From positions 1 to 56,843 of the IMG/VR virus record IMGVR_UViG_3300037424_001259: DNA of 56,843 nt. One strand, given 5' to 3'. The position numbers and the translations under genes were made by a program. The stretch comes from a virus (lineage: Duplodnaviria > Caudoviricetes). The notes beneath the pieces are model-generated. The model saw nothing but the letters and a program-made list of their open reading frames with translations. It did not search any database and was not told the DNA's origin. Shown here piece after piece: positions 9,533-54,654 of this stretch (position 1 is its first letter; every line of letters begins with the position of its first letter).

Positions 9533-9831
9533 GCGCGCCGAAAATCGTCGGTAATATAAGGTGTTAGATTGGCGGCAAGCAAGAAACGTGGCAATTGCGG
9601 CGCGCCGACAATTGGCGCTCCTCCTGTAGTGCGAGACAGTCCAACAGAAGCAAAAAGCGTGCGCTGTGAAATTACTCGGACTCCATCTTCAAGAACGGCG
9701 CAGTCTAAGACAGCAGCTCCGATCTTTAATTCTCCGGTATGTGTTGCTCGGGGAAGTACAGTCCTTTCCCCTCCGTCCTTATTCCATCTTGCCGCAGCCG
9801 CTAGGCTTGCCAGTGCAAGCATATTCTCCAA
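9529..9831 (-). pseudogene. Truncated P63C-type (antirepressor-like) protein N-terminal part
   Basis: AAAARW...LPRATHTGELKIG...DCAVLEDGVRVISQR...LPRFL.A.NL.PYI, then a premature stop. Confidence 0.7.
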
Positions 9832-10992: not shown

Positions 10993-13119
10993 GTGGCAAC
11001 TGCACTCCAGCTTGAAGAGCCGCGGGTTGGGTATCAGCCGCCTCCCATCCCAGGATGGCCCGCCGGAGCGGACCCCGAAGCGCAGTCGATCGAAGCGCTA
11101 CCGAAACACATCCCCCTCCTAGCCGGACACATTCGTACGCTCTTCGAGACCTGGAAGACAGCCAGGGCGCTCCCAGAGCAGCGGATGCTCAGAAATATCC
11201 GCATGAAGAACTCCGAGTACGAGCCCGCCAAGTACGCCGCGATCGTCGAACTCATGGGTCCTATGGCGACCCCGCCCTTCATGAAAATCTGCGAAGCGAA
11301 GACCGATGCCGTCTACGGATGGCTCATTGATGCCATTCTCCCTCCGGGAGTCTTCCCTGCCAACATCGAGCCGACGCCGATGCCTGACCTCCCAGACTAC
11401 CTTGTGACCGAGATCGAGTCTGAGGTCATGAACGAGGTTGCCCGCCGCGTCGAGATGGCCTACGCGCAAGGGATGACCCTCAACGCCTCAACCGTCCGTG
11501 CCGCTCGCGACGAGATGATGAAGCAGGCGCGGAAGGAGATGAAGATCAAGATCCTTGAGCACGCCAAGGAGGCTGCCAAGGAGATGTTCCTCAAGATCCA
11601 GGACCAGTTCGCCGAGGGTGATTGGGAGAAAGCCTTCCGGGCCGCCCTGCACGACCTTGTGGATGTAGGGACCGCCATTATGTCAGGTCCGGTCCTGCGC
11701 ACGGTTGGGATGCACCGGCGCGAGCTGAACATGCTCGCCGGCCGCTGGGAAGAAAAGTGGGTCGAGGAGACGATCCCGCAGTTCGATCGCTACGTTCCGC
11801 TCCGCTTCTACCCAAGTTCAGACGCTACCCGCGACAGCTTGCCCGGAAGCATCTACATCGACGCGATGACGAGGATGAACCTCTCGGACCTCCTTGGCGT
11901 CGACGGTTACGACGAGGCCGCCATTCGGAAGGTATTGCGCGAGCACAAGCATGGCTTCAGAGAGAACACGCTCATCGAACAGCAGAAGGCCGAACTCGAG
12001 GAGAAATCGAACATCTACGATACCGAACTGATCGACTGCCTCCGCTTCAAAGGGTCCATTTCGGGGAGCCTGCTGATCGAGTACGGCGTCGACGACATGG
12101 GCGAGCTGGATCCCGAGCGCGAATACGAGTGCCTCATTTGGCAGATCGGAAGCGACATCATCAAGGCGCTGCTGAACCCCCAGACGGTCGGGCTAAACCA
12201 TATTTTCAGTGCGGCTTTTTCTGAGAGGCCCGATTCCTTCTGGGGAGTCGGCGTCCCCGAGAAGATGGAGCACTCCGTCAACATTGCCAACATGGCCGCA
12301 GTTCACATCGTCATGAACGCTGCGATGGGCTCAGGACCGATGGCTGAGTTCAACAGCGACCGCGTGGGCGGCCAGAACATGCAGATCCGGCCATGGGCTA
12401 CCTTCCCGGCGACGAACGCTCAGATGATGGAGTCTAAGGCAATTCAGTTCTACCAGACCCAGATGGTCACTGACAAGCTCACCGCCCTGTTCGAGTGGGC
12501 CATGAACCTCGCGGACCACGAGACGAACTTTCCGAGAATCCTTTATGCCGGGACAGCGTCGACGCCAACCGCCAGCGCGTCGGCCATGGCGGCTTCCCAG
12601 GCCAGTAAAGGCGCGATGTCCATCGTGAGGAATATTGACATCGGCCTCATCATCCCGAGCGTCCAAAAAATGTTCCGGTTCAACATGCAGTACGGTGACA
12701 ACCCAGACATCATCGGCGATTTGCGGATAGTTGCTCGAGCATCTGGCGCCCAGGTCGCGAAGGAACAGAAGATCATTCGTCTCAAGGAAACCCTCGTCGA
12801 ATCGAACAACCCGAACGACATCAACGTCATTACGATTCCGATCCGGGCGAAACTCTGGAAGATTCTGCTGACCGAAGAGGGTATCGACTCGTCGGTCATG
12901 GGGATGGACGACGAGATCGAACGGCGAGCCGAGCAGATACAAATGCAGATGCAAAATCAACAGATGATGATGCAGGCCGGCCCGACCGCGGCGATCGGTG
13001 CCGACGGTGGGGCTTCATTTCGCCAGCCGCCGGCCGCCAGGATGATGGATGACAGCGGGCAGCTTGTAGCCGGCCGTGACAGCCAGCTATTTCAGAGCGA
13101 AGCGGGGATGACGCCATGA
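10993..13119 (+). CDS. Portal protein
   Basis: 708 aa after terL; FWGVGVPE motif, T..TAS...M segment and Q/M-rich C-terminal barrel as in P22-like portals. Confidence 0.85.
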   Translation: MATALQLEEPRVGYQPPPIPGWPAGADPEAQSIEALPKHIPLLAGHIRTLFETWKTARALPEQRMLRNIRMKNSEYEPAKYAAIVELMGPMATPPFMKICEAKTDAVYGWLIDAILPPGVFPANIEPTPMPDLPDYLVTEIESEVMNEVARRVEMAYAQGMTLNASTVRAARDEMMKQARKEMKIKILEHAKEAAKEMFLKIQDQFAEGDWEKAFRAALHDLVDVGTAIMSGPVLRTVGMHRRELNMLAGRWEEKWVEETIPQFDRYVPLRFYPSSDATRDSLPGSIYIDAMTRMNLSDLLGVDGYDEAAIRKVLREHKHGFRENTLIEQQKAELEEKSNIYDTELIDCLRFKGSISGSLLIEYGVDDMGELDPEREYECLIWQIGSDIIKALLNPQTVGLNHIFSAAFSERPDSFWGVGVPEKMEHSVNIANMAAVHIVMNAAMGSGPMAEFNSDRVGGQNMQIRPWATFPATNAQMMESKAIQFYQTQMVTDKLTALFEWAMNLADHETNFPRILYAGTASTPTASASAMAASQASKGAMSIVRNIDIGLIIPSVQKMFRFNMQYGDNPDIIGDLRIVARASGAQVAKEQKIIRLKETLVESNNPNDINVITIPIRAKLWKILLTEEGIDSSVMGMDDEIERRAEQIQMQMQNQQMMMQAGPTAAIGADGGASFRQPPAARMMDDSGQLVAGRDSQLFQSEAGMTP

Positions 13120-15492: not shown

Positions 15493-16434
15493 ATGGTATA
15501 CCCGGTTGCAGCGGGCCAGATCAACCTCGGAAGTGACGGCACCATTCAGTACAGTCCGGCAAGATACGCGCCGGATTTCGCTCTCGCGCTCTATCCGATG
15601 ATGTTCCTGTCGGAGATCGCGAACACGAATTTCCAGGGGACCCTGCGCGATTTTGGGGATAAGGTCATCATCCGCCGGCGTCCGACCGTCACGACCTTCC
15701 GTACCTCCAAGGGCATGAAGCTGCCCGTCCAAAAGCTCACCGGCCCCGCGGTTGTCGAGCTTTTGATCGACCAGGGCGTCGGCTTCAACGTCGCGCTCGA
15801 GAAGGTCGACGAGAAGCAGTCCGACCTGAACCTCTCTTCGGCGATCATGGAAGAGGCCGCGATCCAGACCAAGATCGACATCGAGACCGACTTCCTCGCG
15901 AACATCTACACCAGCGCCCACGCCGACAACATCGGCACGACCGCCGGCGCGAAGACCGGGAGCTACAACATCGGTGTCGCCGGTAATCCGGTTGCCGTGG
16001 ACCACACCAACGCCACGACCTACCTGCAGCGCTTCGCCGCCATCCTCTCGGAAGCGAACGTCAGCCCTATCGGCCGCTGGGCCGTGATCCCCAACTGGTA
16101 CGCCTACCTGCTCGGGCTCTCGGACCTCAAGAACGCCTCTCTTACCGGGGCCTCGGACAACGTGCTCCTGACCGGCCGCCTGCCGCAGAAGGTCGCGGGG
16201 TTCACGCTGTACGAGACCAACCTTTACACCCCCACGGACGACGGGCACCAGGCGTACCCGGTCACCTTCGGGCACAAGGACTTCATCACCTTCGCCAACC
16301 AGCTCAACGAGCTGGAGACCATTCCGAACCCGGAGAGCTTCGGGCGCCTGCTCCGCGGCCAGTCCATCTACGGCTACGAGGCGATCGTTCCCGAGGGCCT
16401 TGGCTACGGCTGGATGTACCAGAACGAGGCGTAA
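15493..16434 (+). CDS. Major capsid protein (HK97 fold, P22-coat-like)
   Basis: NTNFQG.L...GDKVII, LLIDQ, AGFTLYETN and FGRLLRGQSIYG motifs. Confidence 0.9.
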   Translation: MVYPVAAGQINLGSDGTIQYSPARYAPDFALALYPMMFLSEIANTNFQGTLRDFGDKVIIRRRPTVTTFRTSKGMKLPVQKLTGPAVVELLIDQGVGFNVALEKVDEKQSDLNLSSAIMEEAAIQTKIDIETDFLANIYTSAHADNIGTTAGAKTGSYNIGVAGNPVAVDHTNATTYLQRFAAILSEANVSPIGRWAVIPNWYAYLLGLSDLKNASLTGASDNVLLTGRLPQKVAGFTLYETNLYTPTDDGHQAYPVTFGHKDFITFANQLNELETIPNPESFGRLLRGQSIYGYEAIVPEGLGYGWMYQNEA

Positions 16435-38672: not shown

Positions 38673-38893
38673 GTCTGGTAACCAAGGGTCTCGGCACTCG
38701 GCAGATGCTCCTTAAGGGGCTGGCTGTTGTCCTTGGCGCCATCTTGGAACAGAAGAAGGACACCGAGGCATTCATGCTATTCAACAAACGCAGACTTGCT
38801 AACCGGCGGGCGATAGAACTGGTACGATCAGATGAGCAAGACGTAATTGATATTTTTAATTGTCTGGCGGCGACCGAGGAGATATTCATATGA
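38669..38893 (+). CDS. Small hypothetical protein
   Basis: Coupled on both sides. Confidence 0.55.
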   Translation: MSLVTKGLGTRQMLLKGLAVVLGAILEQKKDTEAFMLFNKRRLANRRAIELVRSDEQDVIDIFNCLAATEEIFI

Positions 38894-41800
38894 GTGTCGG
38901 ATGCCTGAAGAAACACGGACTTGACCCCGGCACGATTGCCATTATTGAGAAGAAGGCGCTGAAGTACATCGCTGCCAAGGCAGAGATTCGTGACGCTTGG
39001 AGACAGGCGGCGCAGGAACATCTGCTTGATTTGGATGGGCAGAGGCAGAGGATTGAGGCTCTCGCGGCGCCGGCCGAGAGGAAGGCTGCTGCTGCCAAGG
39101 AAGAACGTCTTCCTGCCGCCATGCCGGCCCCTGCGGTCCCGGCGGAGAAGATCGCCGCGGTCGCCCCTCAGAAGAGCAACGCCGATCTCGCCATCGTCAA
39201 TGGGAACGCCGTGGCGAAGGACGAAGAGGCGCAGGTTCCTTTGATTCCAGAGAAGAAAGCGCGGCCGAGCATTCTCGAGGAGGCGCCGGCACCAAAGATC
39301 GGCGTGGATACTTCCTTCGATTTCGGGGCAAACGTCGCTCCCGCCCCCGCTCCAAAGCCCACGAACCCCGTCGCCGCGTACCAAGCGAAGATCAACGAAG
39401 AGTTCCCCCCAGGCGACACTCTTGTCCCCACCGAGCGGACAATTCATTCCAAAGGCGGCGTCATCGTTGATCGCCCTGCAAAGGACAAGCATCCTCGTGG
39501 TGGCGTCGTCATTCGTTTCGGATCGGGAAAGGAAAAGCATCTAACGCTTAAGGAAGCTCGCAAGTGGGAGGTCTTCAACGAACAAGACTTCCGCCTGATC
39601 GAGCAAGAGCGGTCCCGAAAAGAGATGAAAGGCAACGGAGAAGGCGCCTTCCTCATTGGCCTCATCAAGAAGTACGGGGGATTCGACCCAAGAATGGCCG
39701 GACTCCGCTCCGACTTTTTTCAGGACCTGAAGATTCCTCCAGGGATACTGAAAAAGGGGGCGCAGTCTGTCGACAAGCTGGCAAACGAACTCGGATACGA
39801 TGACTTTCACGACATGCTTGCCGATGTCAGGAGCGAACTCGAGACAGGGCGGCCTTCCTACAATGGTAAAAGAGATTTCCATGAAAACTTCCAACCAAGG
39901 GAGGTTCCCTATGGGCCTGTGCGTAGAGACACTGGAGAGAGAGAAGCTGGAACGCCATCCCGGCCAGCCAAGGAAACCAATGAGCCTGTGCGTTCCGGGA
40001 CCGGACGGAATGTGGATGATGCTACGGGACAACCCGTCGCCGGCCGCGAAGGATCTGGCGAGGGCGCTGATGCAGGAGGGAAGGGAGAACGCTATGGGGG
40101 GGATCTTGGGAACGCACGTCGTGTCCAAGGACGGGGAGATTCACATGACGTTGCGAGACAATCCGACGCCGGAGGCGCTGAGGTTCGCGAGGGAGTTGGC
40201 CTACGGGAAGTCTACGCCGTCAAGAGGCTACAAGAAAGTCTCCTCGAAAACAAAGAAATCAGCGAGGGCTTCAAGAAAAGAATCGCAGGAATAAAGCCCG
40301 CGCACCTTCCGCTCTCTCGCGCAGCAGAGGGCGAGTTGATGTCCGCTCTCTCAAAGTTCTTCGGGGTGTCGAAGAAGGTTATCATCGTCGACGCCAACGG
40401 TCTTTTCAACGGCGTCAAGGCGCTCGACAATTACATCTTCATCGACAAGGATGCCACGAATCTTCTCTCAAAGGTCTTCGTGCATGAGTTCGGCCACTTC
40501 AAAGGGAAAGAGCGCCAGGATCTCCACGACGTTCTCTGGCAACTTGTCGACCGCGAGAAGTTCAAGAAATGGCGAGCGGCCCGGGAAGCTACCCAAGAGC
40601 GCAGCGGCTATCCGTTTCTCTCTGAGGCCGCGGCGTTCGAGGAATTCACGAACGACATGATGGCCGAGGTCATCCACAACCCCGAGTTCTTTGAACGTCT
40701 CGCCGCCGAACACGTCGGCACTTTCCGCCGGATGATCATGTGGATCCGCGCCAAGATGATCGCGATGGGGATCAACCCGGAGGGGTTCGGGTACTACTTC
40801 TCTCGCCCTGGATCGTTCCCAGAAGCGGTGAAACAGATCGAGGACTTCGTTCGCAATCGGATCGAGAGCGTGCCGGGGGTGACGAAGGGCGATCTGGCGT
40901 TCTTCTCCCCCGCCAACGATCGTCAGTCCTGGGATCAATGGTCGACGAAAGAGAAGCAGGCCCGCCGTCTTGCCGCCGAAGCCAAGAAGGCCGGGGATGT
41001 CCAGACCGAGAACATGTGGACGGCCCGCGCAGATGAACTGAAAAGAAAGATCACCGCCGCTTCGTTGTCTGCAAACCCCGAGGATTTCTTCGGAAGAGCG
41101 ATGTTCTCGCCGCGGGACGACGCTCCGCCCGCCATGTCCGAAATGCTGACGGATTCCGTGTACAGAAAGAAAGTCAGCGACAATTACTTCAAGGACGAGA
41201 CGCTGTCTGCCAACAGCCGCCTAGTCCCGCAGGTTCCGCAGGGATTGAAACTCGGTATGTGGCGCTACGATGACTGGGGCAAAGGCGTTTACGGGCACGG
41301 GATGTCGCAGCTCAGACTCTTGGATCCAAGCACGCTCCTGCTCGGCGAAGACGTTGACCAGAATGGTCGACGCCCGGATGCCGACCGCTACGCTGAATGG
41401 TTCAAGGAAGGCAAGGCTGCCCCGCCGATCGAGGTCGTGGAGACGGACAAGGGCCTCATGCGCGTCTCAGACGGGCACCGCAGGGTAGCCTCTGCCAAGA
41501 AGAACGGTGTCCCGGTCCTGGCTTGGGTGTCGCCTTCGATGGACGTTCTCCCGGGCAAGGACGGCAAGTTGTCTCGGTACAATGGCGATCCGAAGATGCC
41601 TGTCATCAAGACCGGCCTGACCTACGAGGCATGGAAGGACGGCACTGGGAAGCGCACGACGCCGCTCGAGGGCGGATTCTCGGATCCGGGGCTTCCGGTG
41701 CCGCCGGACTTCCCGATGTTCTCCCCCCGCGCCCAAAAGCCCTACACCCCCGACTGGGCAGCGATCGCCGCCAGCCAGGATGTTGCCCATCAGGTGGCGC

Positions 41801-44661
41801 TGAGAAAGACCTGGGTGAACTCCGAGATCACAACCCTCGACAATGCCCTGCGCATCTGGCAGGACCGCAACGTCGACATGCTCCGAACGAAGCAGGACAT
41901 CGAGAAGCAAATCGGTGCGCTGAACGACGAGGTGAACTTCCGCCAGAAGGAAACCCTCGCGATCTCCAAGGTTGCGGATCGTCAAGGCGAACTCAAAAAG
42001 CGCTTCGAGAAACCCATTTCAGAATTGATCGCGCTGTACAACGAGACCATCGAGTCGGTCGGCGAATACCTGAGTATGCGCCACGCCGAGGAGTACAACG
42101 ATGTCATCGCCAAGCGCAACCCCGGTTTCGAGGGGCCGGGGTCCGGGATCGAGACTGAGGCCGCCCGGAAATACCTCGAGGGGCTCTCAAAGGAACGCCG
42201 CGAAGGACTCGAGGGAATCGAGGAACTCATCCGGGCTTACAGCGCCACCGTCGAGGACATGATGGTGGAGTACGGGCTTGAAACGCGGGAGACGATCGAC
42301 CTCTGGCGGGAAATGTACCCGCACTACGTTCCGTTCCAGCGCGAAGGGGCGGACGAGGGCGAGGGCATCGGCAACAGGACCGGCAAGGGCATGAACATCC
42401 GCGGCGGAGAGTCGAAGGTCGCGCACGGATCTTCCCTGCCGATCACGAACGTCCTGGCGAACATGTTCGAGAAGGGGCGCCGGACCATCATGCGCGGGGA
42501 GAAGAACCGCGTCGGCAACGCCACCTACGGCGCCGCGGTCAAGTACCAGAACAAGGACTTCTGGAAGGCGGTCAACCCCGAGCGCGTGAGCAAGAGACGG
42601 TTCGCCGCCCTCGAGGCCGAAGCCAAGGCCCTCCAGGAAGAAATCGACATGATCGCGCAGGGGGACTTCCTTGAGGATGAGAACGCCGGGAGGAACGCCG
42701 ACCTCGAGGCCAAATTGAAGAAGGTCGAGAAGGCCATCGACCGCTGGCACGTCGACCGGGCAGAACTCAACAGGGAAATGGCGCGGCTGGGAGTCCCTGC
42801 GGCCGACGTTGAAGCGATCTTCGACGAGCCAAAAGAGCGCTACCTCAACCCCTACACGAAGCAGACCGCGTGGCGCGTGAACTCTGCCGTGCGCGACAAG
42901 CCCTACGTCCTGGCGACTCGGTTCAAGGGGCAGGATCACTTCCTGTTCTTCAACAACCGCAACCCCCGCGCCCTCGAGATGGCGAAGGCGATGAAGAACA
43001 TGGACGTGGAGGATCTCCACTTCATGCTCGCGGCGATGTCGAAGTACACCCGCGTCTTCGCCTCGCTCTCGACGCAGTGGAACGTGTTCTTCGGCCCGGT
43101 CAACGCTGTCCGTGACGTGCAGGAGGCCATGCTGAACCTGACGAACACCCCACTGGCGGGTCGGCAGGACGACGTTGTGAAGATGGTGCCCAAGGCCATC
43201 CTAGGGATCTACAAGGACGTGCGGGGGCGCCGCGCTGGTATGGATCCTGACCTCACGGACCCGGTTGTGCTCGCGGCCAATGAGTACCGTGAGAATGGCG
43301 GGATGACAGGCTTCGTCACCATGCTTGCGGACGCACAGGAACGGGCGGAGTCGATCGAGAAGGAACTCAAGAAGATCACCGAAGGGAAATTCAGGGGCGC
43401 CGGCCGAGCAATCATCGACTGGGTCTCCGACTACAACGAGGCGCTCGAGAACGGGACCCGGCTGGCGGTCTTCATGACGGCTCGCGAGAACGGTCTGAGC
43501 CCCGAGCAGTCGGCCGCCATGGCGAAAGAGATCACGGTCAACTTCAACCGCAAGGGGCAGATCGCTTCTCAGGCCGGAGCGATGTACGCCTTCTTCAACG
43601 CCGCAGTTCAGGGTTCCGCTGTCATGGCGCGGACCTTGGCCGGGCCTGCAGGTAAGAGGATCCTAGCCGGTGGACTGGCCTTTGGGGCCATGCAGGCTCT
43701 CTTCTTGGCCGCCGCGGGCTACAAGGACGACGAGCCGCCGGACTTTGTGAAGCAAAGGAACATCATCATCCCCTGGTTCGACGAGGGCAAGAACTACACG
43801 ATGATCCCGCTGCCTCTTGGCTTCGCTATCCTCCCGAGCCTAGGCCGGATGGCTGCCGAGCAGATCATCGGCGAAGGCAAGCGGCCTGGGAAGCTGGCGA
43901 CGAACCTCCTAGGGCTCGTGGCCGACACCTTCATCCCCACCGGCGGCGGCGGGAACCCCAGTTCCCTATCGAAGTTCGCGGTCAACGCTGTCGCCCCGAC
44001 CGCGGGTCGGCCGATCGCAGCTCTGGCAATCAACGAGGACTACACCGGGCGCCCCGTCTTTCGGGACAACTTCTCCTTCCGCGAGCGCACTCCCGGATTC
44101 ACGCGCACCAAGGACTCAGCCTCCGCTCTCGGAAAGGCTGTCGCGGAGTTTTCCAACTGGGCCTCCGGGGGGACGCAGGACACGCCCGGATCGTTCTCTC
44201 CGACTGCAGACGAATTCGACTTCCTCGTTTCCCAGTACGCGGGAGGTGTTGGCCGGGAAGTAATGAAGACCGCAATAACCGCAAGCGCTGTTGCTCAGGG
44301 AAAAGAGATCCTCCCCTACAAAGTTCCTCTTGTCGGACGCTTCTGGGGGTCTGCTTCTGGATCCTATGCCGTCAAGAATCACTTCTACGAGAACCTCCGG
44401 CTGGCCTATGAGCACAAGAACGAGATCGAGGGCAGGGGAAAGCGCGGTGAAAACATCGAAGATTACATCAAGAAGAACCCGGAGGCTGGCGCGTTTAAGA
44501 TGGCGATGGCGTTCGAGGGGGATCTCGATAAACTCAAGGACGCCAAGACGAAAGCGAACGCACAGGGATTTCATGCTCACAACAGGTATTTCGATCAACA
44601 GGCTATCGGCATGATGGAAGAGTTCAACAAGCAGTTTGACAGGCTGAAGAAAAGGAAGTAG
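38890..44661 (+). CDS. Giant polyvalent ejection protein (HExxH peptidase-like, ParB/Srx-like and C-terminal LPD38-like domains)
   Basis: VFVHEFGH; PPIEV....G.MRVSDGHRRV; EITVNFNRKG, YAFFNAAVQG and IPLPLGF; ATG at 38890 coupled by ATGA. Confidence 0.8.
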   Translation: MSVGCLKKHGLDPGTIAIIEKKALKYIAAKAEIRDAWRQAAQEHLLDLDGQRQRIEALAAPAERKAAAAKEERLPAAMPAPAVPAEKIAAVAPQKSNADLAIVNGNAVAKDEEAQVPLIPEKKARPSILEEAPAPKIGVDTSFDFGANVAPAPAPKPTNPVAAYQAKINEEFPPGDTLVPTERTIHSKGGVIVDRPAKDKHPRGGVVIRFGSGKEKHLTLKEARKWEVFNEQDFRLIEQERSRKEMKGNGEGAFLIGLIKKYGGFDPRMAGLRSDFFQDLKIPPGILKKGAQSVDKLANELGYDDFHDMLADVRSELETGRPSYNGKRDFHENFQPREVPYGPVRRDTGEREAGTPSRPAKETNEPVRSGTGRNVDDATGQPVAGREGSGEGADAGGKGERYGGDLGNARRVQGRGDSHDVARQSDAGGAEVREGVGLREVYAVKRLQESLLENKEISEGFKKRIAGIKPAHLPLSRAAEGELMSALSKFFGVSKKVIIVDANGLFNGVKALDNYIFIDKDATNLLSKVFVHEFGHFKGKERQDLHDVLWQLVDREKFKKWRAAREATQERSGYPFLSEAAAFEEFTNDMMAEVIHNPEFFERLAAEHVGTFRRMIMWIRAKMIAMGINPEGFGYYFSRPGSFPEAVKQIEDFVRNRIESVPGVTKGDLAFFSPANDRQSWDQWSTKEKQARRLAAEAKKAGDVQTENMWTARADELKRKITAASLSANPEDFFGRAMFSPRDDAPPAMSEMLTDSVYRKKVSDNYFKDETLSANSRLVPQVPQGLKLGMWRYDDWGKGVYGHGMSQLRLLDPSTLLLGEDVDQNGRRPDADRYAEWFKEGKAAPPIEVVETDKGLMRVSDGHRRVASAKKNGVPVLAWVSPSMDVLPGKDGKLSRYNGDPKMPVIKTGLTYEAWKDGTGKRTTPLEGGFSDPGLPVPPDFPMFSPRAQKPYTPDWAAIAASQDVAHQVALRKTWVNSEITTLDNALRIWQDRNVDMLRTKQDIEKQIGALNDEVNFRQKETLAISKVADRQGELKKRFEKPISELIALYNETIESVGEYLSMRHAEEYNDVIAKRNPGFEGPGSGIETEAARKYLEGLSKERREGLEGIEELIRAYSATVEDMMVEYGLETRETIDLWREMYPHYVPFQREGADEGEGIGNRTGKGMNIRGGESKVAHGSSLPITNVLANMFEKGRRTIMRGEKNRVGNATYGAAVKYQNKDFWKAVNPERVSKRRFAALEAEAKALQEEIDMIAQGDFLEDENAGRNADLEAKLKKVEKAIDRWHVDRAELNREMARLGVPAADVEAIFDEPKERYLNPYTKQTAWRVNSAVRDKPYVLATRFKGQDHFLFFNNRNPRALEMAKAMKNMDVEDLHFMLAAMSKYTRVFASLSTQWNVFFGPVNAVRDVQEAMLNLTNTPLAGRQDDVVKMVPKAILGIYKDVRGRRAGMDPDLTDPVVLAANEYRENGGMTGFVTMLADAQERAESIEKELKKITEGKFRGAGRAIIDWVSDYNEALENGTRLAVFMTARENGLSPEQSAAMAKEITVNFNRKGQIASQAGAMYAFFNAAVQGSAVMARTLAGPAGKRILAGGLAFGAMQALFLAAAGYKDDEPPDFVKQRNIIIPWFDEGKNYTMIPLPLGFAILPSLGRMAAEQIIGEGKRPGKLATNLLGLVADTFIPTGGGGNPSSLSKFAVNAVAPTAGRPIAALAINEDYTGRPVFRDNFSFRERTPGFTRTKDSASALGKAVAEFSNWASGGTQDTPGSFSPTADEFDFLVSQYAGGVGREVMKTAITASAVAQGKEILPYKVPLVGRFWGSASGSYAVKNHFYENLRLAYEHKNEIEGRGKRGENIEDYIKKNPEAGAFKMAMAFEGDLDKLKDAKTKANAQGFHAHNRYFDQQAIGMMEEFNKQFDRLKKRK
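39911..40294 (+). CDS. Overprinted +1-frame gene nested in the giant protein
   Basis: GGAGG SD 6 nt before ATG 39911 (alternative ATGs at 39881 and 39980); internal repeat LRDNP.P.A...AR.L conserved only in this frame. Confidence 0.6.
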   Translation: MGLCVETLEREKLERHPGQPRKPMSLCVPGPDGMWMMLRDNPSPAAKDLARALMQEGRENAMGGILGTHVVSKDGEIHMTLRDNPTPEALRFARELAYGKSTPSRGYKKVSSKTKKSARASRKESQE

Positions 44662-46996: not shown

Positions 46997-47091
46997 CCCT
47001 CCTCCTTCCCCATCGCGGGGGTGATAAACCGCAGCGGCTTTGCACGTTCGGGACCGTACCGTGCTCAACGCGCAAAGCCGTTACCACCTAA

Positions 47092-47445
47092 TCACTCGGG
47101 AAAAAAGGTTAAAATAGCACGAGCCAGCGACCTTAGTTCTTCTGGCGTTGCGTCGTTTTTCATTGTGTTTGCTTTTCTGGAAATTACCCATACGTTGCCG
47201 GGGATATATCCGATTGAATTTACTTTTCGGTCAAGTGACGGGGAGTTGTCGTTCTTAGATGTTGAACCACGATAAAGTTTGATACCGAGAAGTGGGCATG
47301 TTTCTGGAACGATTATGTCATCCACCGTAATAGAAAACGGTATTGAGTCGCGCTTGCTTCTGTACTTTGCTACAGCAAGCATGTGCTCTTTGAGGTGAGC
47401 CAGGAAATAACGCTTTCGTGTCTCTGGCTTGCTTTTCCCGCTCAT
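47092..47445 (-). CDS. HNH-like endonuclease
   Basis: CPLLG...SPSLDR.....GY..GNV.VIS.KAN.MK.DAT.EEL. Confidence 0.85.
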   Translation of the reverse strand: MSGKSKPETRKRYFLAHLKEHMLAVAKYRSKRDSIPFSITVDDIIVPETCPLLGIKLYRGSTSKNDNSPSLDRKVNSIGYIPGNVWVISRKANTMKNDATPEELRSLARAILTFFPE

Positions 47446-47832
47446 TTAGACACCTCCCGGAATATACTCTTGGTTAGGCTGCAAAACTGCATCAGGAGTG
47501 TCGCGCTTCCGAGGGTACTTGTTTCGGCACTCCTCTGCCGAGGTTACACCAAGCGCCTTCCCGCACTCTGCAATCAACGAATGGTAAGAGATTGGCTTGT
47601 CTCTGAATTCCATCGCGTCCATGTACCAACGCGAAAGCAACCACTCAAGAAGACATATCCTATTTTGCCCCGACATCACATTTATCCGCGAAGCGTCCAA
47701 AGCACGTTCAAGGTTTTCTATCTTTGTGGCGGCTTCGCCCATCTGCTTATTGCATGTCTCGCGCTCAAACCGCTCCCCGTGAACTGCGTCCATGTTCACC
47801 GATGCGCGGAGCCTCCTTGCAATGTCGCTCAT
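47446..47832 (-). CDS. Cassette 1 hypothetical protein (3' end runs past the array boundary)
   Basis: ORF coupled to 47829-48107. Confidence 0.65.
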   Translation of the reverse strand: MSDIARRLRASVNMDAVHGERFERETCNKQMGEAATKIENLERALDASRINVMSGQNRICLLEWLLSRWYMDAMEFRDKPISYHSLIAECGKALGVTSAEECRNKYPRKRDTPDAVLQPNQEYIPGGV

Positions 47833-48107
47833 CCCGCAAGCCCTTTTTGTCTTCCGCAGACGCGAGAGATGGTTTCTCCAAATGCCACGAATTGCTCAAC
47901 CGTCCTCCGTGCCGCTGCCAACTCCTGTTCCTGTTTTGCGACGAGCGATTGCAGGTGTGAAGCGAAAACAGAAACTTTCGTTTGCTGCTCGCTGGCTGGG
48001 AGTTCTTCGATCATCACGCAGAGTTTGTGCATCCGTCCTGCGAGGTACGGAACGGTATTCTCGCCAAGAACCTCATCCACCAGCCTGTCGATATTCGCCA
48101 TCTCCAT
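47829..48107 (-). CDS. Cassette 1 hypothetical protein
   Basis: ORF with SD starting just inside attC1. Confidence 0.65.
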   Translation of the reverse strand: MEMANIDRLVDEVLGENTVPYLAGRMHKLCVMIEELPASEQQTKVSVFASHLQSLVAKQEQELAAARRTVEQFVAFGETISRVCGRQKGLAG

Positions 48108-48131
48108 TCCCTTTCTGCCGGATCAGGAGGA

Positions 48132-48190
48132 GCCTAACCCACGCATGGAGGAGACGCGGAAACCGCGCTCCTCATAACTTCATGTTAGGT
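48132..48190 (+). repeat. attC site 1 (59 bp)
   Basis: GCCTAAC CCACG CATgGAGG AGaC GCGG AAA CCGC GCT CCTCATA ACTTCAT GTTAGGT (lower case = unpaired bases). Confidence 0.9.
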
Positions 48191-48480
48191 GGTAAAAAGA
48201 TATCAATTTTGTCTCGCATGTCCCCGAGAGCCGCGTGGCCGTAGTTTTCAGACCAATCGTCGAAGAGTTGGCGGGACTCCCGGAGTAATTCAACCAATTT
48301 TGAAATTCGTTGTTCGGCTGAGAGGCATTCCTTGCCGCGCTTTGACCCTTTACCCTCCTCCCACCCTGGACCCTGCATCGAACATTCGATCCCCTCTTGA
48401 CAGAAAAATTCTTCGGGACACTGGCAGGGCTCGCAGAACTCGTCACCGGCATCAATCTCCATGGCTATCAGTCGTTTCAT
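48172..48480 (-). CDS. Cassette 2 Cys-rich hypothetical protein
   Basis: AGGAGG SD; stop lies inside attC1. Confidence 0.7.
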   Translation of the reverse strand: MKRLIAMEIDAGDEFCEPCQCPEEFFCQEGIECSMQGPGWEEGKGSKRGKECLSAEQRISKLVELLRESRQLFDDWSENYGHAALGDMRDKIDIFLPPNMKL

Positions 48481-48505
48481 AACATCCCTCCTGGTTATGA
48501 AGACC

Positions 48506-48563
48506 ACCTAACCAAGTGCTGTAGTTGACCGCGAGGCGCGGCAACTAAGCACCCATGTTAGAT
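48506..48563 (+). repeat. attC site 2 (58 bp)
   Basis: ACCTAAC CAAGT GCTgTAGT TGaC CGCG AGG CGCG GCA ACTAAGC ACCCAT GTTAGAT. Confidence 0.9.
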
Positions 48564-49000
48564 GCGGAACCGAAACACCGATGCCACATCACCAGCGACC
48601 CGGCCACCGCAACATTGTAGCTCTCCGTCCGCACGCTCTCCAGGCTCACGACGTGCTGACACTTCGCGAGGATCTCCTTCGGTAATCCATGGTCTTCTGC
48701 CCCGAGCAAATACACGGCCCGTTCCGGGTGCTTGAATTGCGCCAGCGGCGTTCCTCCCATTTCGACCGCTACTAATGGCGCATCATAGGGCCGGGACAAG
48801 AGGAACAGATCCCATGTCGCGTGCTCACGGAGCGGTACGTGCCGCCACGTTTTCAGCGTGTCGCTCGCCTGTTTCGGATAACGAGAACCAATTGTGAAAA
48901 TCCCCGTCGCCCCGAGTTGCGAAGCAGAGCGCCAGAGCGTGCCGAGGTTCATTGGCGTCTTGTGATGGTAAATCCCGATCTCGAAATACCCGCGCATCAC
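48545..49000 (-). CDS. Cassette 3: SpoU/TrmH-family (SPOUT) RNA 2'-O-methyltransferase
   Basis: NLGTLWRSA..LG (motif 1), LLGAEDHGL (motif 2) and ESYNVAVAG (motif 3). Confidence 0.9.
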   Translation of the reverse strand: MMRGYFEIGIYHHKTPMNLGTLWRSASQLGATGIFTIGSRYPKQASDTLKTWRHVPLREHATWDLFLLSRPYDAPLVAVEMGGTPLAQFKHPERAVYLLGAEDHGLPKEILAKCQHVVSLESVRTESYNVAVAGSLVMWHRCFGSASNMGA

Positions 49001-49018
49001 AACTCCTTTCGGAAGAGC

Positions 49019-49071
49019 ATCTAACCCAGCAGTGAACCGGACGCTACGCGCCGGTTACCGCACTGTTAGAC
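49019..49071 (+). repeat. attC site 3 (53 bp)
   Basis: ATCTAAC CCAGC AGTgAACC GGaC GC TAC GC GCC GGTTACC GCACT GTTAGAC. Confidence 0.9.
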
Positions 49072-49319
49072 CGCAAGAACTGCATACCAGCCTCGGTGAT
49101 CTCCCAACGCAACCACGGATAGCCCTCGGCTTTTGGCACGATGAATTTTCGCGTTTCGAGTTCAAGAACCAAAGAGCGCAGCCACTGCTTGTCCATGTCC
49201 CATATGCTGACTCGCGGAGAATTAGAAAGCACCGCGAGCGCATTTGCCGTGGTCCGCATCTTCGGCTTCAAGTCTGCGAGGTCTCCAGAAAAACTATCAA
49301 GAAAAATAACTCCCGGCAT
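49044..49319 (-). CDS. Cassette 4 small winged-helix-like protein
   Basis: AAGGAG SD; C-terminal WEITEAGMQFL wing motif; stop lies inside attC3. Confidence 0.7.
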   Translation of the reverse strand: MPGVIFLDSFSGDLADLKPKMRTTANALAVLSNSPRVSIWDMDKQWLRSLVLELETRKFIVPKAEGYPWLRWEITEAGMQFLRSNSAVTGA

Positions 49320-49345
49320 TTGTTCCAGTTCTCCTTTCCCGTGGG

Positions 49346-49404
49346 GTCTAACCCACGCATGGACCTGACCGCGAGACGCGGCAGGTCATGACTTCATGTT
49401 AGGT
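49346..49404 (+). repeat. attC site 4 (59 bp)
   Basis: GTCTAAC CCACG CATgGACC TGaC CGCG AGA CGCG GCA GGTCATG ACTTCAT GTTAGGT. Confidence 0.9.
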
Positions 49405-49656
49405 GGATAAACAGCCACGGGCCAAACTCGCAAGACAATTACATTCGGGAACCTCGCTATACTTTCTCGCTGGTGCTAAGTTCTCCGCGTCTATGCACGC
49501 CTGCAACCGCTGCGGATCTTCACCCTTGCCGAGCGACACGTTAAGCAGGATGCAATGCTTTCTTCCTCTTGCCGCCCGCTTCACGTATTGGCAAGACCCG
49601 CAAATGTGAACAGAGGGGCTACTGTCGATCTTGATTCGCAGGTATCGCGTTGCCAT
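49399..49656 (-). CDS. Cassette 5 gene 4, Cys-rich
   Basis: TAATG coupling; stop TAA lies in the attC4 core. Confidence 0.6.
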   Translation of the reverse strand: MATRYLRIKIDSSPSVHICGSCQYVKRAARGRKHCILLNVSLGKGEDPQRLQACIDAENLAPARKYSEVPECNCLASLARGCLST

Positions 49657-49838
49657 TACATAAACCCGCACTTTCTCATCATCGCCATCATGTCCTTGAA
49701 CCCGACAACAATCCATTCCTTCTTCTTGAGCGGAAGCGAAAAATGGAACTCCCCGGCGTTGGGGTTTAAAACATCGCCATCACGAAAGTATCGAATCAGG
49801 TTGTCATTCTCTTTGCAGGTGTACTTTACGGTCTTCAT
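49656..49838 (-). CDS. Cassette 5 gene 3
   Basis: GGAGG SD; coupled. Confidence 0.6.
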   Translation of the reverse strand: MKTVKYTCKENDNLIRYFRDGDVLNPNAGEFHFSLPLKKKEWIVVGFKDMMAMMRKCGFM

Positions 49839-49994
49839 TTATTCACCCTCCGTCAAACAACCTTCCGGCATCTCGTTTTCATACACGAGCTTGTGTTGCT
49901 CGTCCCGGCCTACTCCCCGCCCGCAGATCGGGCAAAAAAACACAATCCCCCGCTTCCCGTATGGCCGTATTTCGCATTCTGTTTTGCCGCCCAT
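49839..49994 (-). CDS. Cassette 5 gene 2 (51 aa, FCPICG)
   Basis: Read manually: MGGKTECEIRPYGKRGIVFFCPICG... Confidence 0.45.
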   Translation of the reverse strand: MGGKTECEIRPYGKRGIVFFCPICGRGVGRDEQHKLVYENEMPEGCLTEGE

Positions 49995-50011
49995 GTTCTC
50001 GTGGTAGAGGC

Positions 50012-50209
50012 TCACTTTCCATTTTCTCCTTTCATGTATTCCCTTATCCCATCACACATCAATTGCAACTTTCTGACGTATTCCCGAGCGGGGTGCGTAT
50101 TGCCGTGCCCGTCAAGCCAAACAACATCTTCCCACATCGTTACTCTATCGCACCGATCAAGAAGGAGAAGGAGAACCTTCTTGTAACCCTTATTACCTAG
50201 GCCACTCAT
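50012..50209 (-). CDS. Cassette 5 gene 1
   Basis: GGAGG SD before ATG 50209. Confidence 0.6.
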   Translation of the reverse strand: MSGLGNKGYKKVLLLLLDRCDRVTMWEDVVWLDGHGNTHPAREYVRKLQLMCDGIREYMKGENGK

Positions 50210-50236
50210 CACCCCTCCAATCAAAGCAAAATCACT

Positions 50237-50293
50237 TCCTAACCCGAGCATGAAGCTGACCGCTAGGAGCGGCAGCTTATGCTTTTGTTAGAT
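50237..50293 (+). repeat. attC site 5 (57 bp)
   Basis: TCCTAAC CCGAG CATgAAGC TGaC CGCT AGG AGCG GCA GCTTATG CTTTT GTTAGAT. Confidence 0.9.
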
Positions 50294-50878
50294 GGATAAC
50301 CGCAACTGACGCACCCACTCCGAACGCCCCGTTGCACGCTCGATCTCCTTGGCGTTCTCCTCCGCGTGATAGTTAATCCCGTGCTGTGCCTCAGACACCG
50401 CAGCAACGTAGTAGGCCAGTGCCGGTTTCGCGTTGGCAGACTTCAAGGACTCGCAGATGTAATCAATTCCGTTGCCACTGATCCCGATTTGCTGAAGCAT
50501 GAAATCTTTCAGCCCCTTGTGCTCTGGTGTCGGCGGTCGCCACGCCTTGACCTGCTCGGCCATCGCGGTCAGGCGTTCGTTCGCGGCTTGGTCCTTTGCC
50601 AGCCACTGTTCGGTGCGGGAAACATCAGCGGCCTTCTCGGACTGCCCAAACGCAAGGCGCTCATCGGTGGTCATGGCCTTCAGTCGCGCCAATTTCTCAC
50701 GGGACTCGACCAAACGCTTCGCGTGATAGTCCGAAGGCTCGAACTTGTCCGGAACGGGCGCGTCATTTGGATCGTCACGCATTTCGATCAACGCCCCGAA
50801 AGCGCGGGCGCATCCCATAATGAACTCCTGAAACGTCTGCCCATTGTCCATCAGCTTCGCGGTGTACCCTGTTGGCAT
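50288..50878 (-). CDS. Cassette 6 conserved phage hypothetical protein (MPTGYTA family)
   Basis: MPTGYTA...F..F...CARAFGA...MRD and W.PPT.EH..LK.FM.QQI motifs. Confidence 0.8.
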   Translation of the reverse strand: MPTGYTAKLMDNGQTFQEFIMGCARAFGALIEMRDDPNDAPVPDKFEPSDYHAKRLVESREKLARLKAMTTDERLAFGQSEKAADVSRTEQWLAKDQAANERLTAMAEQVKAWRPPTPEHKGLKDFMLQQIGISGNGIDYICESLKSANAKPALAYYVAAVSEAQHGINYHAEENAKEIERATGRSEWVRQLRLSI

Positions 50879-50911
50879 TTCGATCTCCTTTCAAGATTAA
50901 CTACAAAAACC

Positions 50912-50968
50912 ATCTAACCCAGCCGTTGTAGCCGACGCCTACGGCGCGGCTAAACGCTACTGTTAGAT
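50912..50968 (+). repeat. attC site 6 (57 bp)
   Basis: ATCTAAC CCAGCC GTTgTAGC CGaC GCC TAC GGC GCG GCTAAAC GCTACT GTTAGAT. Confidence 0.9.
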
Positions 50969-51237
50969 GGAAACTGAAAACCACAATACAGATTGTCTTC
51001 GGCAATCCGCTTGATACTCGCCAGCAGCCCGAGAAGCAAATCGTTCTGCGCTCCCGGAAGCGTCCCGGTGTGAGCGATGATCCTCCGCAGCGTGTCCTTG
51101 AACCGCTCCGACTCGTCGTCGTTGAGGCAGTCCCGGAACTCAACAGAAACGATTCTTCCGCCCTTCCATCCGTCGCCAGCGGTCACTCCGGGTTCGGTCC
51201 CGTCCGCAAACTCGAATACTGCCGTATACCGTTTCAT
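50950..51237 (-). CDS. Cassette 7 hypothetical protein
   Basis: GGAGGAG SD; stop lies inside attC6. Confidence 0.7.
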   Translation of the reverse strand: MKRYTAVFEFADGTEPGVTAGDGWKGGRIVSVEFRDCLNDDESERFKDTLRRIIAHTGTLPGAQNDLLLGLLASIKRIAEDNLYCGFQFPSNSSV

Positions 51238-51257
51238 GCTACTCCTCCGGTTGTGCC

Positions 51258-51313
51258 ATCTAACCCACGGTTGTAGCCGACGCCTACGGCGCGGCTAAAC
51301 GCTACTGTTAAAA
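51258..51313 (+). repeat. attC site 7 (56 bp)
   Basis: ATCTAAC CCACG GTTgTAGC CGaC GCC TAC GGC GCG GCTAAAC GCTACT GTTAAAA. Confidence 0.9.
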
Positions 51314-51769
51314 TCGCTCCTCGACCCAAACCCCGCCCTTGCGCTGGATCGCCACGAAGTTAAATTCTGGAAACAGGTCAGCAGCGACCTTGATGCGCAC
51401 CCGGGCGGCCTCTCTCCAGAAGCCCTTGACTTCGTGGAACTGGAACACGTCGCAGTCTTTGTCCTCGTTCCTTGCGACGACAAGGAAGTCTGGTTTGAAC
51501 CATGCTCTGTTGGCAAGCCGCAGGCGGATAGCCTCGAATTTCCACGACACAATCACTCTGGCATGGCGCAGGATCTCAAGGTGGTCGGCATACTTTGCTT
51601 CCGTTGGGTTCATTCCGCGAGGCGTAGGCTTGCTCTTGGCAACCGTCTCCTTTGCCACGATCGGTTGCTTCTGGCACACAACTTTATGTTGAGGGTTGAT
51701 CTGTAATAGCGCTTGCTCTCTGTGCGCGGGAGAGAGCATCGCGAGGTCGTCTTCGATTGTTCTAGCCAT
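51308..51769 (-). CDS. DUF1064-like PD-(D/E)XK endonuclease
   Basis: MNPTEAKYA..L, W.FEAI.LRLA....KPDF, HEVKGFW and RIKVAA motifs. Confidence 0.8.
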   Translation of the reverse strand: MARTIEDDLAMLSPAHREQALLQINPQHKVVCQKQPIVAKETVAKSKPTPRGMNPTEAKYADHLEILRHARVIVSWKFEAIRLRLANRAWFKPDFLVVARNEDKDCDVFQFHEVKGFWREAARVRIKVAADLFPEFNFVAIQRKGGVWVEERF

Positions 51770-53667: not shown

Positions 53668-54654
53668 TTATTTCTCCTTGGGTTTGTAGAATTTGCGAAT
53701 CCCGTCGACCTTCTTCGTGTGCTTGGCAACGATCGCTTCGTAGTCAACCTTGGAAATCATGCCAGAGATGTGCTTGGCGATCGCCTCGTAGTCAACCTTT
53801 TCCCCGTCCTTGGTGCGCGACCATTTCGCCCTCGAGCCGTCCCCGAACACGATCCCTTCGTCGCCGGCGATGATCTCCTCCAGTTGGTTGATCGCAAGGT
53901 TTTGCTGGACCTTTGCGACATCCAGCATCTCGCCGGCCCGGAGGAGTTCCTGTTTGATCTGCTCGGCCTCGTCTGTCGCCGGCAGGAGCTGCTTCGTATT
54001 CCTGGGGAACTGGCGGGCCAGCCACGCTGCGGCTTCTTCGCTGGCGTCCACCGGCGGCGCCTTGTCGGTCATGACGTAGTCCATCCAGAAGCGCTCTGCC
54101 TCTTCGCGGAGTTGCGCCTCGAGGTCCAGGTTGCGGCCGCGGACGATGGGATAGACGCGGAAGTTCGGGCCAGGGAGAAGCACGGCGATGTCGGCAACGT
54201 CCTGCTGAAGTACCATGCCCTGCCAGATGACTTGAATGAAGTACATATCGGGCACGGCATTCTCCGTTCCGATCTCGCCCCACTTCAGCGACGACGAACG
54301 GCCAAGGATCGCCTTCGCTTCGACCACCCTCTTGTCCTCTTTTCCGACGCCGTCCGGAGTCGCCGCGGCCAAGCGGAATTCAGGACTGATGATGATCTCG
54401 GTATCCCCGCAGTGCCGGACCGGGACATTCTCCTCGATCTCGTACCGGTTAAGAACGGTCGACTGCAGGTTCCGGCCAAGCCACATGGCGAGATTGTCCT
54501 CGAGCGGCTCGGCTCTCCCGGTCTTCTCGAGCCACACCCCGAGCTTCGACTTCCACGGGTTCATGCCGACGATCGCGCCGATGTCGGTCGCGGTGACGTG
54601 CGACTGCCTCAATTTTAGCCATTTTTCTCGAGATAACACCTCGACTTCACTCAT
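53668..54654 (-). CDS. YqaJ-like viral recombinase exonuclease
   Basis: WLKLR...TATD...I.G.NPW.S, ATPDG, VEAK and VPDMY.IQV motifs. Confidence 0.9.
   Translation of the reverse strand: MSEVEVLSREKWLKLRQSHVTATDIGAIVGMNPWKSKLGVWLEKTGRAEPLEDNLAMWLGRNLQSTVLNRYEIEENVPVRHCGDTEIIISPEFRLAAATPDGVGKEDKRVVEAKAILGRSSSLKWGEIGTENAVPDMYFIQVIWQGMVLQQDVADIAVLLPGPNFRVYPIVRGRNLDLEAQLREEAERFWMDYVMTDKAPPVDASEEAAAWLARQFPRNTKQLLPATDEAEQIKQELLRAGEMLDVAKVQQNLAINQLEEIIAGDEGIVFGDGSRAKWSRTKDGEKVDYEAIAKHISGMISKVDYEAIVAKHTKKVDGIRKFYKPKEK

Follow-up and report, generated by a model that had tools for sequence, protein, structure and literature searches.

The viral record IMGVR_UViG_3300037424_001259, from an uncultured tailed phage, carries seven short segments of coding DNA separated by hairpins that resemble the attC recombination sites of integrons. 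We refer to the whole stretch analysed, which is the complete record (56,843 bases, linear, estimated completeness 84%), as the window. Integron cassettes generally count as a system by which bacteria capture genes, and the locus raises the question of whether such cassettes have entered a phage genome and, if so, at which core they were opened and in which direction their genes are read. With a probability of about 0.8, we conclude that the locus is an integrase-less cluster of seven integron-type attC sites (S1 to S7) bounding seven gene cassettes.

An earlier note on this DNA had claimed that the GTT core opening each cassette is the reverse complement of the R'' core closing the same cassette. 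All seven pairs were found as claimed, and together they span the DNA between the first G, at 47473, and the last base of the final R'', at 51264. The cassettes and their cores are as follows.

47473..47480, + strand: left junction, a bare core GTTAGGCT with no hairpin leftward of it; predicted crossover G47473/T47474
47474..48184, + strand: cassette 1, 711 bp; attC S1 with R'' at 48131-48138 and the G of R' at 48184; cores GTTAGGCT (47473) and AGCCTAAC (48131), 8 bp
48185..48557, + strand: cassette 2, 373 bp; attC S2 with R'' at 48503-48512 and G at 48557; cores GTTAGGTGGT (48184) and ACCACCTAAC (48503), 10 bp
48558..49065, + strand: cassette 3, 508 bp; attC S3 with R'' at 49017-49025 and G at 49065; cores GTTAGATGC (48557) and GCATCTAAC (49017), 9 bp
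49066..49398, + strand: cassette 4, 333 bp; attC S4 with R'' at 49345-49352 and G at 49398; cores GTTAGACC (49065) and GGTCTAAC (49345), 8 bp
49399..50287, + strand: cassette 5, 889 bp; attC S5 with R'' at 50238-50243 and G at 50287; cores GTTAGG (49398) and CCTAAC (50238), 6 bp
50288..50962, + strand: cassette 6, 675 bp; attC S6 with R'' at 50910-50918 and G at 50962; cores GTTAGATGG (50287) and CCATCTAAC (50910), 9 bp
50963..51307, + strand: cassette 7, 345 bp; attC S7 with R'' at 51256-51264 and G at 51307; cores GTTAGATGG (50962) and CCATCTAAC (51256), 9 bp

These same-cassette pairings sum to 59 bp, whereas within each hairpin, taken as a linear site, the cores pair over 6, 5, 6, 5, 5, 9 and 4 bp (sum 40), which agrees with the note's remark that linear attC cores pair over shorter lengths with site 6 as the exception. 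When cassette starts were re-paired with R'' cores, 59 bp was reached by 2 of 5040 arrangements, namely the true pairing and the one that swaps cassettes 6 and 7, which scores equally because the cores of these two are identical. Following the check that the note had proposed, we closed each cassette at G|TT and folded its bottom strand with DNA parameters. The summed folding energy of the true partners was -138.9 kcal/mol, compared with -115.6 for the linear sites and a permutation mean of -121.2, and only 2 of the 5040 permutations equalled the true pairing. By core length and by energy alike, re-pairings thus rarely score as well as the arrangement found in the window. The weak point is cassette 5, which pairs over the 6-bp core alone and whose start fits the R'' of site 2 better (9 bp). 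The pattern CTAAC-N35-65-GTTAR has 14 matches on the two strands against 1.32 expected, a number reached in none of 100 shuffles.

That cores pair in a cassette-specific way is textbook knowledge for integron cassettes. Our results support the view that complementarity beyond the conserved core is the outcome of a circular cassette's complete attC having been opened inside one core, and they uphold the argument that terminators or repetitive extragenic palindrome (REP)-like sequences would not yield such complementarity cassette by cassette. The circular origin proposed in the note stands insofar as both ends of a cassette derive from one site. The pairing by itself is not specific for an opening at G|TT rather than at CTAA|C: it is symmetric, the ends being complementary whichever core is cut, and therefore the position of the cut has to be sought in other evidence.

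At the level of structure, all seven sites share one layout of CTAAC, an unpaired spacer of 3-7 nucleotides (nt), a stem, a return arm and GTTAG (GTTAA in S7). When both strands were folded as DNA, each site showed two single-base bulges 6 bp apart and a 3-nt loop. The bulged bases are G and A on the 5' arm of the + strand, corresponding on the 3' arm of the - strand to T, the one near the loop, and C. Eight of the 16 consensus pairs returned by RNAalifold carry compensatory changes. R'' matches RYYYAAC in six of the seven sites (S5 has TCCTAAC) and R' matches GTTRRRY likewise in six, S7 having the hybrid GTTAAAA. Canonical attCs, including the short ones of mobile integrons such as attCaadA7, share these core motifs, the unpaired spacer, the two extrahelical bases 6 bp apart, the short loop, a crossover inside one core and the cassette-specific R''/R' complementarity (PMC5027507). 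In such sites the extrahelical bases of the bottom strand lie opposite the AAC arm with a spacing of 6 bp (Nivina et al. 2016, PMC5027507).

We built a covariance model, R1, from the + strand of the window's seven sites, which it scores at 51-78 bits on the + strand and at most 14 bits on the - strand. Run over the whole window with filters off, R1 found nothing further at E<=1, the lone extra being a 9.2-bit partial match at 9592-9614 (E 4.9). A blastn search of S6 against plasmids gave short matches only, one of which led to a class 1 integron that served as a control. In this plasmid integron the strand with intI1 is opposite to that of aadA16, aac(6')-IIa and qacEdelta1, and for both attCs R1 scored the strand that codes for the cassettes at 20.2 and 19.5 bits (E about 1e-3), against 8.4 and 7.9 bits for the other strand. 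In phage TJE1, R1 matched at the 3' ends of orf1 and orf2 on the coding strand; the region 1011-1080, which we do not equate with the sites assayed by Qi et al., scores 23.1 bits. A pattern search of bacteria, with one genome per species, gave 62 loci containing 91 R1 matches. Of five bacterial genomes with this attC type that were tested, three encode an integron integrase (IntI) above the curated cut-off, one has a copy truncated by a contig end, whose 263.8 bits fall short of the cut-off of 265, and the fifth has no integrase. Because of their structure, their covariation and the cross-recognition of class 1 attCs, the TJE1 region and bacterial arrays, the seven hairpins are identified as genuine integron attC sites.

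The array is a CALIN, a group of clustered attC sites with no integron integrase, since the window is the whole viral record and contains no tyrosine recombinase. No domain of family PF00589 was found in its 56,843 bases by a search that was positive in 14 of 14 control genomes. The seven sites all lie on the + strand and are spaced 333-889 bp apart. A complete integron would have an intI gene with an adjacent attI site and a Pc promoter; none of these was found near the array, and the absence of PF00589 applies to the 84% of the genome that the record covers. The enzyme therefore either acts in trans or is encoded in the missing part of about 16%.

The bulge position and the homology of R1 to the controls also indicate polarity, and on these grounds the + strand of the window is assigned as the canonical attC top strand and the - strand as the bottom strand that integron integrases recombine. 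The genes of the cassettes lie on the opposite side of this assignment from what is usual. In the bacterial loci we compared the longest ORF (open reading frame) per strand for cassettes between two same-strand sites, leaving out one locus (L022), and the longer ORF lay on the R1 + strand in 27 of 34 cassettes, on the - strand in two and was ambiguous in five. The ORFs of the window's cassettes are the following.

47446-47832, - strand: cassette 1, 128 amino acids (aa), extending 27 nt past the left junction
47829-48107, - strand: cassette 1, 92 aa
48172-48507 as listed, - strand: cassette 2, likely starting at an ATG at 48480 behind AGGAGGG
48545-49000, - strand: cassette 3, SpoU/TrmH-family methyltransferase (Pfam PF00588, E 4.2e-21)
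49044-49319, - strand: cassette 4, 91 aa
49399-49716, 49656-49838, 49839-50015 and 50012-50251, - strand: cassette 5, four small ORFs
50288-50878, - strand: cassette 6, 196 aa, phage family phrog_8905 (PHROGs, E 3.8e-27)
50950-51237, - strand: cassette 7, 95 aa, weak match to phrog_3876 (E 5.1e-6)

Applied to the window, the longest-ORF heuristic assigned two cassettes to the bottom strand, one to the top strand and left three of six ambiguous; the window and the two related contigs described below, C33 and G001, were therefore scored by codon log-odds, with 17 long structural genes as the training set. By this score 11 of 12 - strand ORFs are at or above 0, all 12 + strand ORFs are negative, and the top-scoring ORF lies on the - strand in each of the seven cassettes. 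The - strand ORFs score +6.1 and +13.0 in cassette 1 (+ strand -67.5 and -64.3), +1.7 in cassette 2 (-45.6), +11.7 in cassette 4 (-20.3 and -14.3) and +62.9 in cassette 6 (-29.2), while in cassette 5 three of four - strand ORFs are positive and all three + strand ORFs negative. Family matches (SpoU, phrog_8905 and phrog_3876) occur exclusively on the - strand, and GGAGG-type ribosome-binding sites precede the - strand starts. The SpoU cargo also has weak NCBIfam matches to RlmB/TrmL, membership in PHROGs points to phage-type cargo, and searches of Pfam, PHROGs and NCBIfam assigned no function for five of the seven cassettes. The window thus contains no canonical cassette with its ORF on the attC top strand and the attC behind it: with every gene on the - strand, 7/7 cassettes have cargo that is antisense to the attC top strand. 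On the - strand, all three reading frames are closed less than 30 nt from the core (within 29 nt) at four of the seven sites, compared with one of seven on the + strand (window 48134-51311), so the hairpins serve as stop modules for leftward genes.

The two ends of the array differ. At its left end R1, again with filters off, found no site left of 48127, and the junction is a bare G|TT at 47473/47474. At its right end a complete hairpin body in S7 precedes G|TTAAAA, a hybrid R' whose pairing with the R'' of that site is limited to 4 bp. Recombination between an attC and a plain GWT site should give, in top-strand orientation, such a bare left-hand GTT and a hybrid site on the right-hand side, and cassette insertion at GWT sites outside integrons has been documented (Loot et al. 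preprint, 10.1101/2022.09.11.507474). The flanking genes are listed here.

47092..47445, - strand: left flank, endonuclease VII-like gene, 117 aa (phrog_3322, E 3.3e-30)
51308..51769, - strand: right flank, Holliday-junction-resolvase-like gene, 153 aa (phrog_190, E 1.4e-10)

The TTA after G51307 is the TAA stop codon of the resolvase-like gene, and the endonuclease VII-like gene has its ribosome-binding site and its ATG within the 27 nt left of 47473. Joined without the array, the flanks run from a stop codon through 25 nt of spacer, which includes a ribosome-binding site, to the ATG of the following gene, so that they would form an ordinary phage intergenic region. A relative with an empty site was sought: the right-flank protein and its 406-aa neighbour had no match in viral contigs, the metagenome contigs yielded one 33%-identical match to the right-flank protein on an uninformative 1.2-kb contig, and blastn of 8 kb against cultured phages gave no match.

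To the left of the array, a strong hairpin at 47027-47082 (about 14 bp of stem) was considered as an eighth, decayed attC and rejected, R1 being silent and the cores absent. After it come ACCACCTAAT, similar to the R'' of site 2, and, 16 nt beyond that, GGTTAAAAT (the whole at window 47027-47115), which holds the sole other copy in the window of the right-junction octamer GTTAAAAT. Two copies of this octamer compare with 0.41 expected, and at least two were present in 6 of 100 shuffles. The element may be a remnant of an older site or may reflect chance.

Related arrays were found in two other contigs. G001 is an unrelated viral contig of 60,450 bases (estimated completeness 100%) with no PF00589 tyrosine recombinase found in it. 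It carries one GC-rich cassette in an AT-richer backbone (L011 3433-4105), with two flanking R1-type sites, cores GTTAGATGC and GCATCTAAC and its gene on the R1 - strand. C33 is a phage-like contig of a metagenome-assembled genome in which no integron integrase above the cut-off was found; its array is neighboured by a DNA methylase, a helicase and DUF7220 on one side and by a large BNR-repeat protein on the other. Its four same-strand sites begin with a bare left junction right behind a terminator and end with a full site on the right, and the best-scoring ORF lies on the R1 - strand in all four cassettes, in one of them weakly. Cargo is therefore reversed in 7/7 cassettes of the window, 4/4 of C33 and 1/1 of G001, that is in all 12 as scored by codon log-odds, compared with the 2/34 bacterial cassettes scored by the different measure of longest ORF.

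The SpoU cassette of the window (48556-49085) is also the first cassette of C33 (32649-33176), at 86.4% identity, and since the similarity begins at G|TTAGATGC, cassettes evidently move. The hairpin bodies linked to SpoU are each other's best match, with a value of 0.77. A C33 site next to unrelated cargo has 98% identity to the S5 body, and a second C33 site has 98% identity to the site of G001; because the cargo of G001 and of C33 cassette b is unrelated, this latter pair is uninformative on which hairpin travels with which gene. S6 and S7 are 95% identical. Homologues of the SpoU and 196-aa proteins, with 70% and 71% protein identity, occur in other viral contigs at three loci, in none of which did R1 find a match.

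Shorter elements recur as well. A 32-nt leader with R'' is 96.9% identical between window 48110-48141 (cassette 1) and L076 14839-14870 (C33 cassette d), and the ORFs and hairpin bodies beside it differ between the two. The tail GTTAGGCTGCAAAAC occurs at the window's left junction (47473-47492) and twice in C33, where cassette b begins and where the array ends on the right (L076 13157-13171 and 14910-14924), with the similar GCAAGAACTGCAT after S3 and GCAGAACTGCAT after an S5-type site in a public run (X2); judged from these occurrences, such a tail is a conserved cassette-end motif. In viral locus L083 (3895-4650) the 71%-identical homologue of the 196-aa protein lies between two other hairpins to which R1 is silent and which have 9-bp complementary cores, GTATCTAAC and GTTAGATAC; these may represent a second attC type in phages. 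No attC was seen in the locus L081.

We propose the following course of events. Each cassette would formerly have been circular, with a single complete attC. An IntI acting in trans, most probably from the host, would recombine the folded bottom strand (the - strand of the window) and would cut at AA|C of that strand, which is G|TT on the + strand; with a cut there, the TTAG tail of each site is carried along by the cassette that follows and pairs with the R'' of that same cassette. Insertion would first have taken place in the phage's early, leftward-transcribed region, at an ordinary phage GTT overlapping the TAA stop of the resolvase-like gene, a secondary GWT site of the 'attG' type, leaving the bare junction at 47473 and the hybrid attC at 51307, and later cassettes would have entered at resident attC sites. 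The cargo, on the attC bottom strand and co-directional with the phage operon, would presumably be transcribed by that operon. As a wider and more tentative proposal, which we hold to be possible rather than probable, unrelated integrase-less phages may share a pool of reverse-coded cassettes of phage-type genes that are read by the phage operon instead of an integron promoter, and may use host IntI to shuffle accessory genes with one another; it is suggested by the SpoU cassette in two unrelated contigs, by the 98%-identical attCs in unrelated phages and by the reversal in 12/12 cassettes compared with 2/34.

If the array is of the integron type, a cut at G|TT of the + strand appears more probable than one at CTAA|C, though with less assurance than the array itself. 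It is favoured by the bulge geometry and homology to canonical sites, by the bare-left and full-right ends of two independent arrays (the window and C33), by the reciprocal SpoU-linked bodies and by X2 contigs in which the bodies of S5 and S6 are shared together with 11 and 18 nt on their left.

Several observations weigh against this account of the array and its polarity. R1 was derived from the window's own sites. On the presumed bottom strand the bulge beside the spacer is C in 7/7 sites, where G is usual; the conserved T is present in 7/7, and according to Nivina et al. (2016, PMC5027507) none of the extrahelical bases is decisive by itself. The + strand has a GC skew of -0.075 yet an AT skew of +0.107, so that the purine-skew criterion pulls both ways. 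The stops of five of the seven last ORFs lie beyond the G|TT boundary, four of them 12-21 nt into the neighbour's hairpin and one 27 nt into the backbone. Similarity blocks with C33 end at the R'' core (96.9% in the leader plus R'', followed by unrelated bodies), the DNA to the left of the S5 body shared with C33 is unrelated, similarity of the SpoU cassette runs on for 20 nt past S3, and in viral locus L003 the leftmost site carries a hairpin body.

Some of these observations favour the same integron-type array with the opposite polarity, with each gene followed by its own attC on the - strand, a crossover at CTAA|C and recombination of the + strand. The cargo is entirely on the - strand, where a ribosome-binding site comes soon after each GTTAG, and six of the seven last ORFs would stop in or at a hairpin that is then their own, like ordinary cassettes. 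The SpoU similarity is a single block through S3 and the next 20 nt, the C33 blocks end at the R'' core, and the last site of L003 in - orientation has its body and then backbone. We nevertheless consider this polarity rather unlikely. It implies a top-strand bulge geometry that integron integrases disfavour, and R1 aligns its + strand to the coding strand of the class 1 attCs, the TJE1 region and 27/34 bacterial cassettes. It also needs two precise ad hoc events in each of the two arrays (window and C33), the loss of the last hairpin body with its core intact and a resident attC at the other end, and it does not fit the X2 contigs in which DNA leftward of S5 and S6 is shared together with their bodies.

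A second alternative is that the hairpins are attC-like phage intergenic elements (terminators, RNA-processing sites or REP-like elements) between which genes are swapped by homologous recombination, for example by a YqaJ-type pathway. The phage does encode a YqaJ-like exonuclease (53668-54654), near-identical hairpins occur amid unrelated cargo (98% between G001 and C33, 95% between S6 and S7), mosaic break points lie at both cores and, as stated above, four of seven sites close all frames on the - strand. Homologous exchange would not, however, make cassette ends complementary beyond the shared core, as they are to a degree matched by only 2/5040 re-pairings, and the hairpins, with two bulges separated by 6 bp, have the full attC architecture and are of a type that also occurs in arrays of bacteria encoding IntI. 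Such an origin is thus very improbable.

The integrity of the locus was compared with public data, which comprise the contigs of two runs (X1 and X2), with depth missing in some bins of X2 and one bin of X1. An X1 contig of 49,770 nt runs without difference from the phage interior through cassettes 1-4 into cassette 5, and another X1 contig runs from S7 into the right flank. The run in which the array holds best, possibly the window's own source, breaks at 49879-50168 (cassette 5) and at S6/S7, and its contig depth is 13 over the left flank and cassettes 1-5 and 7-9 over cassettes 5-7 and the right flank. The steps in depth and the breaks could reflect array variants in the population or merely assembly at repeats. 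On the same debit side as the points above, the breaks in cassette 5 and at the near-identical S6/S7 make the right third less secure, the order and number of cassettes 6-7 rest on short contigs, and the public contigs, which cannot show rare variants, contain no circles and no excision or deletion joints. That a piece of a bacterial integron array was fused to a phage contig during assembly, as these breaks and depths might suggest, is nevertheless hardly credible, given X1 contigs that span the phage into cassette 5 and S7 into the flank (from a run that may be the window's source and so does not count as independent support), cargo that includes phage protein families, flanks that fit as a normal phage intergenic region and the same arrangement in two other viral contigs and in C33.

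The remainder of the window is that of a tailed phage, with rightward structural genes and a leftward block of - strand genes that extends from about 45.6 kb up to the end of the record.

About 7 to 45 kb, + strand: head and tail genes
7472-9385, + strand: terminase-like gene
10993-13119, + strand: portal/adaptor-like gene
15493-16434, + strand: major head protein
53668-54654, - strand: YqaJ-type exonuclease

An ORF of 1933 aa (38860-44661) closes the structural module and presumably encodes a tail or fibre protein.

Clusters of attC sites in phages have been described before, though not until 2023. Among 10,705 phage genomes, Qi et al. (2023, PMC9892861) reported three complete integrons, one In0 (a lone integron-integrase gene) and 17 CALINs, and five of six tested attC sites of virulent phages were recombined into attI1 by IntI1. 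The array of TJE1 has three sites, two of which recombine with attI1 (Qi et al. 2023, PMC9892861). The CALINs of that study resemble the window in having attC arrays with small ORFs, no integron integrase and methyltransferase cargo, but in the three-site CALIN of TJE1 the genes lie on the attC top strand, whereas all cargo of the seven sites of the window lies on the bottom strand; a comparison of gene strand with attC polarity was not found in the available part of that paper. Insertions at attG sites, including CALINs and single attC sites lacking an integron integrase (SALINs), likewise have a bare G|TT on one side, a full attC with a hybrid R' on the other and a non-integron GTT (10.1101/2022.09.11.507474). 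The window differs from them in that the target is a phage genome and the insert was, or became, a seven-cassette array, and here the event is deduced from its junctions alone. Compared with canonical attCs, the window differs in the lack of intI, attI and Pc nearby, in a bulged C where G is usual and in cargo antisense to the top strand.

Reversed cassettes of chromosomal integrons are scattered exceptions in canonical arrays. They are alike in that their cargo is read against the array; the window differs in that 7/7 cassettes are reversed. Opposite-oriented cassettes in chromosomal integrons include, for example, toxin-antitoxin cassettes with their own promoter (10.1101/2023.11.21.568050), and the reversed cassettes of the window and of the two phage-like contigs showed no sign of toxin-antitoxin pairs. 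In the portions of the literature searched, no report was found of a phage array with cargo wholly on the attC bottom strand, common to unrelated phages.

The array of the window is hence a rather large example of the known phage attC clusters, exceeding in size the published example checked (TJE1), and its unusual feature is the wholly bottom-strand cargo. The clean secondary-site junctions, the common cassette and the near-identical attCs support real cassette traffic through phage genomes. Cargo on the bottom strand would be silent in an ordinary integron and expressed in the phage. If the reversal holds, it would indicate a phage-adapted cassette pool and would offer a test case for strand choice, transcription direction and cassette origin.

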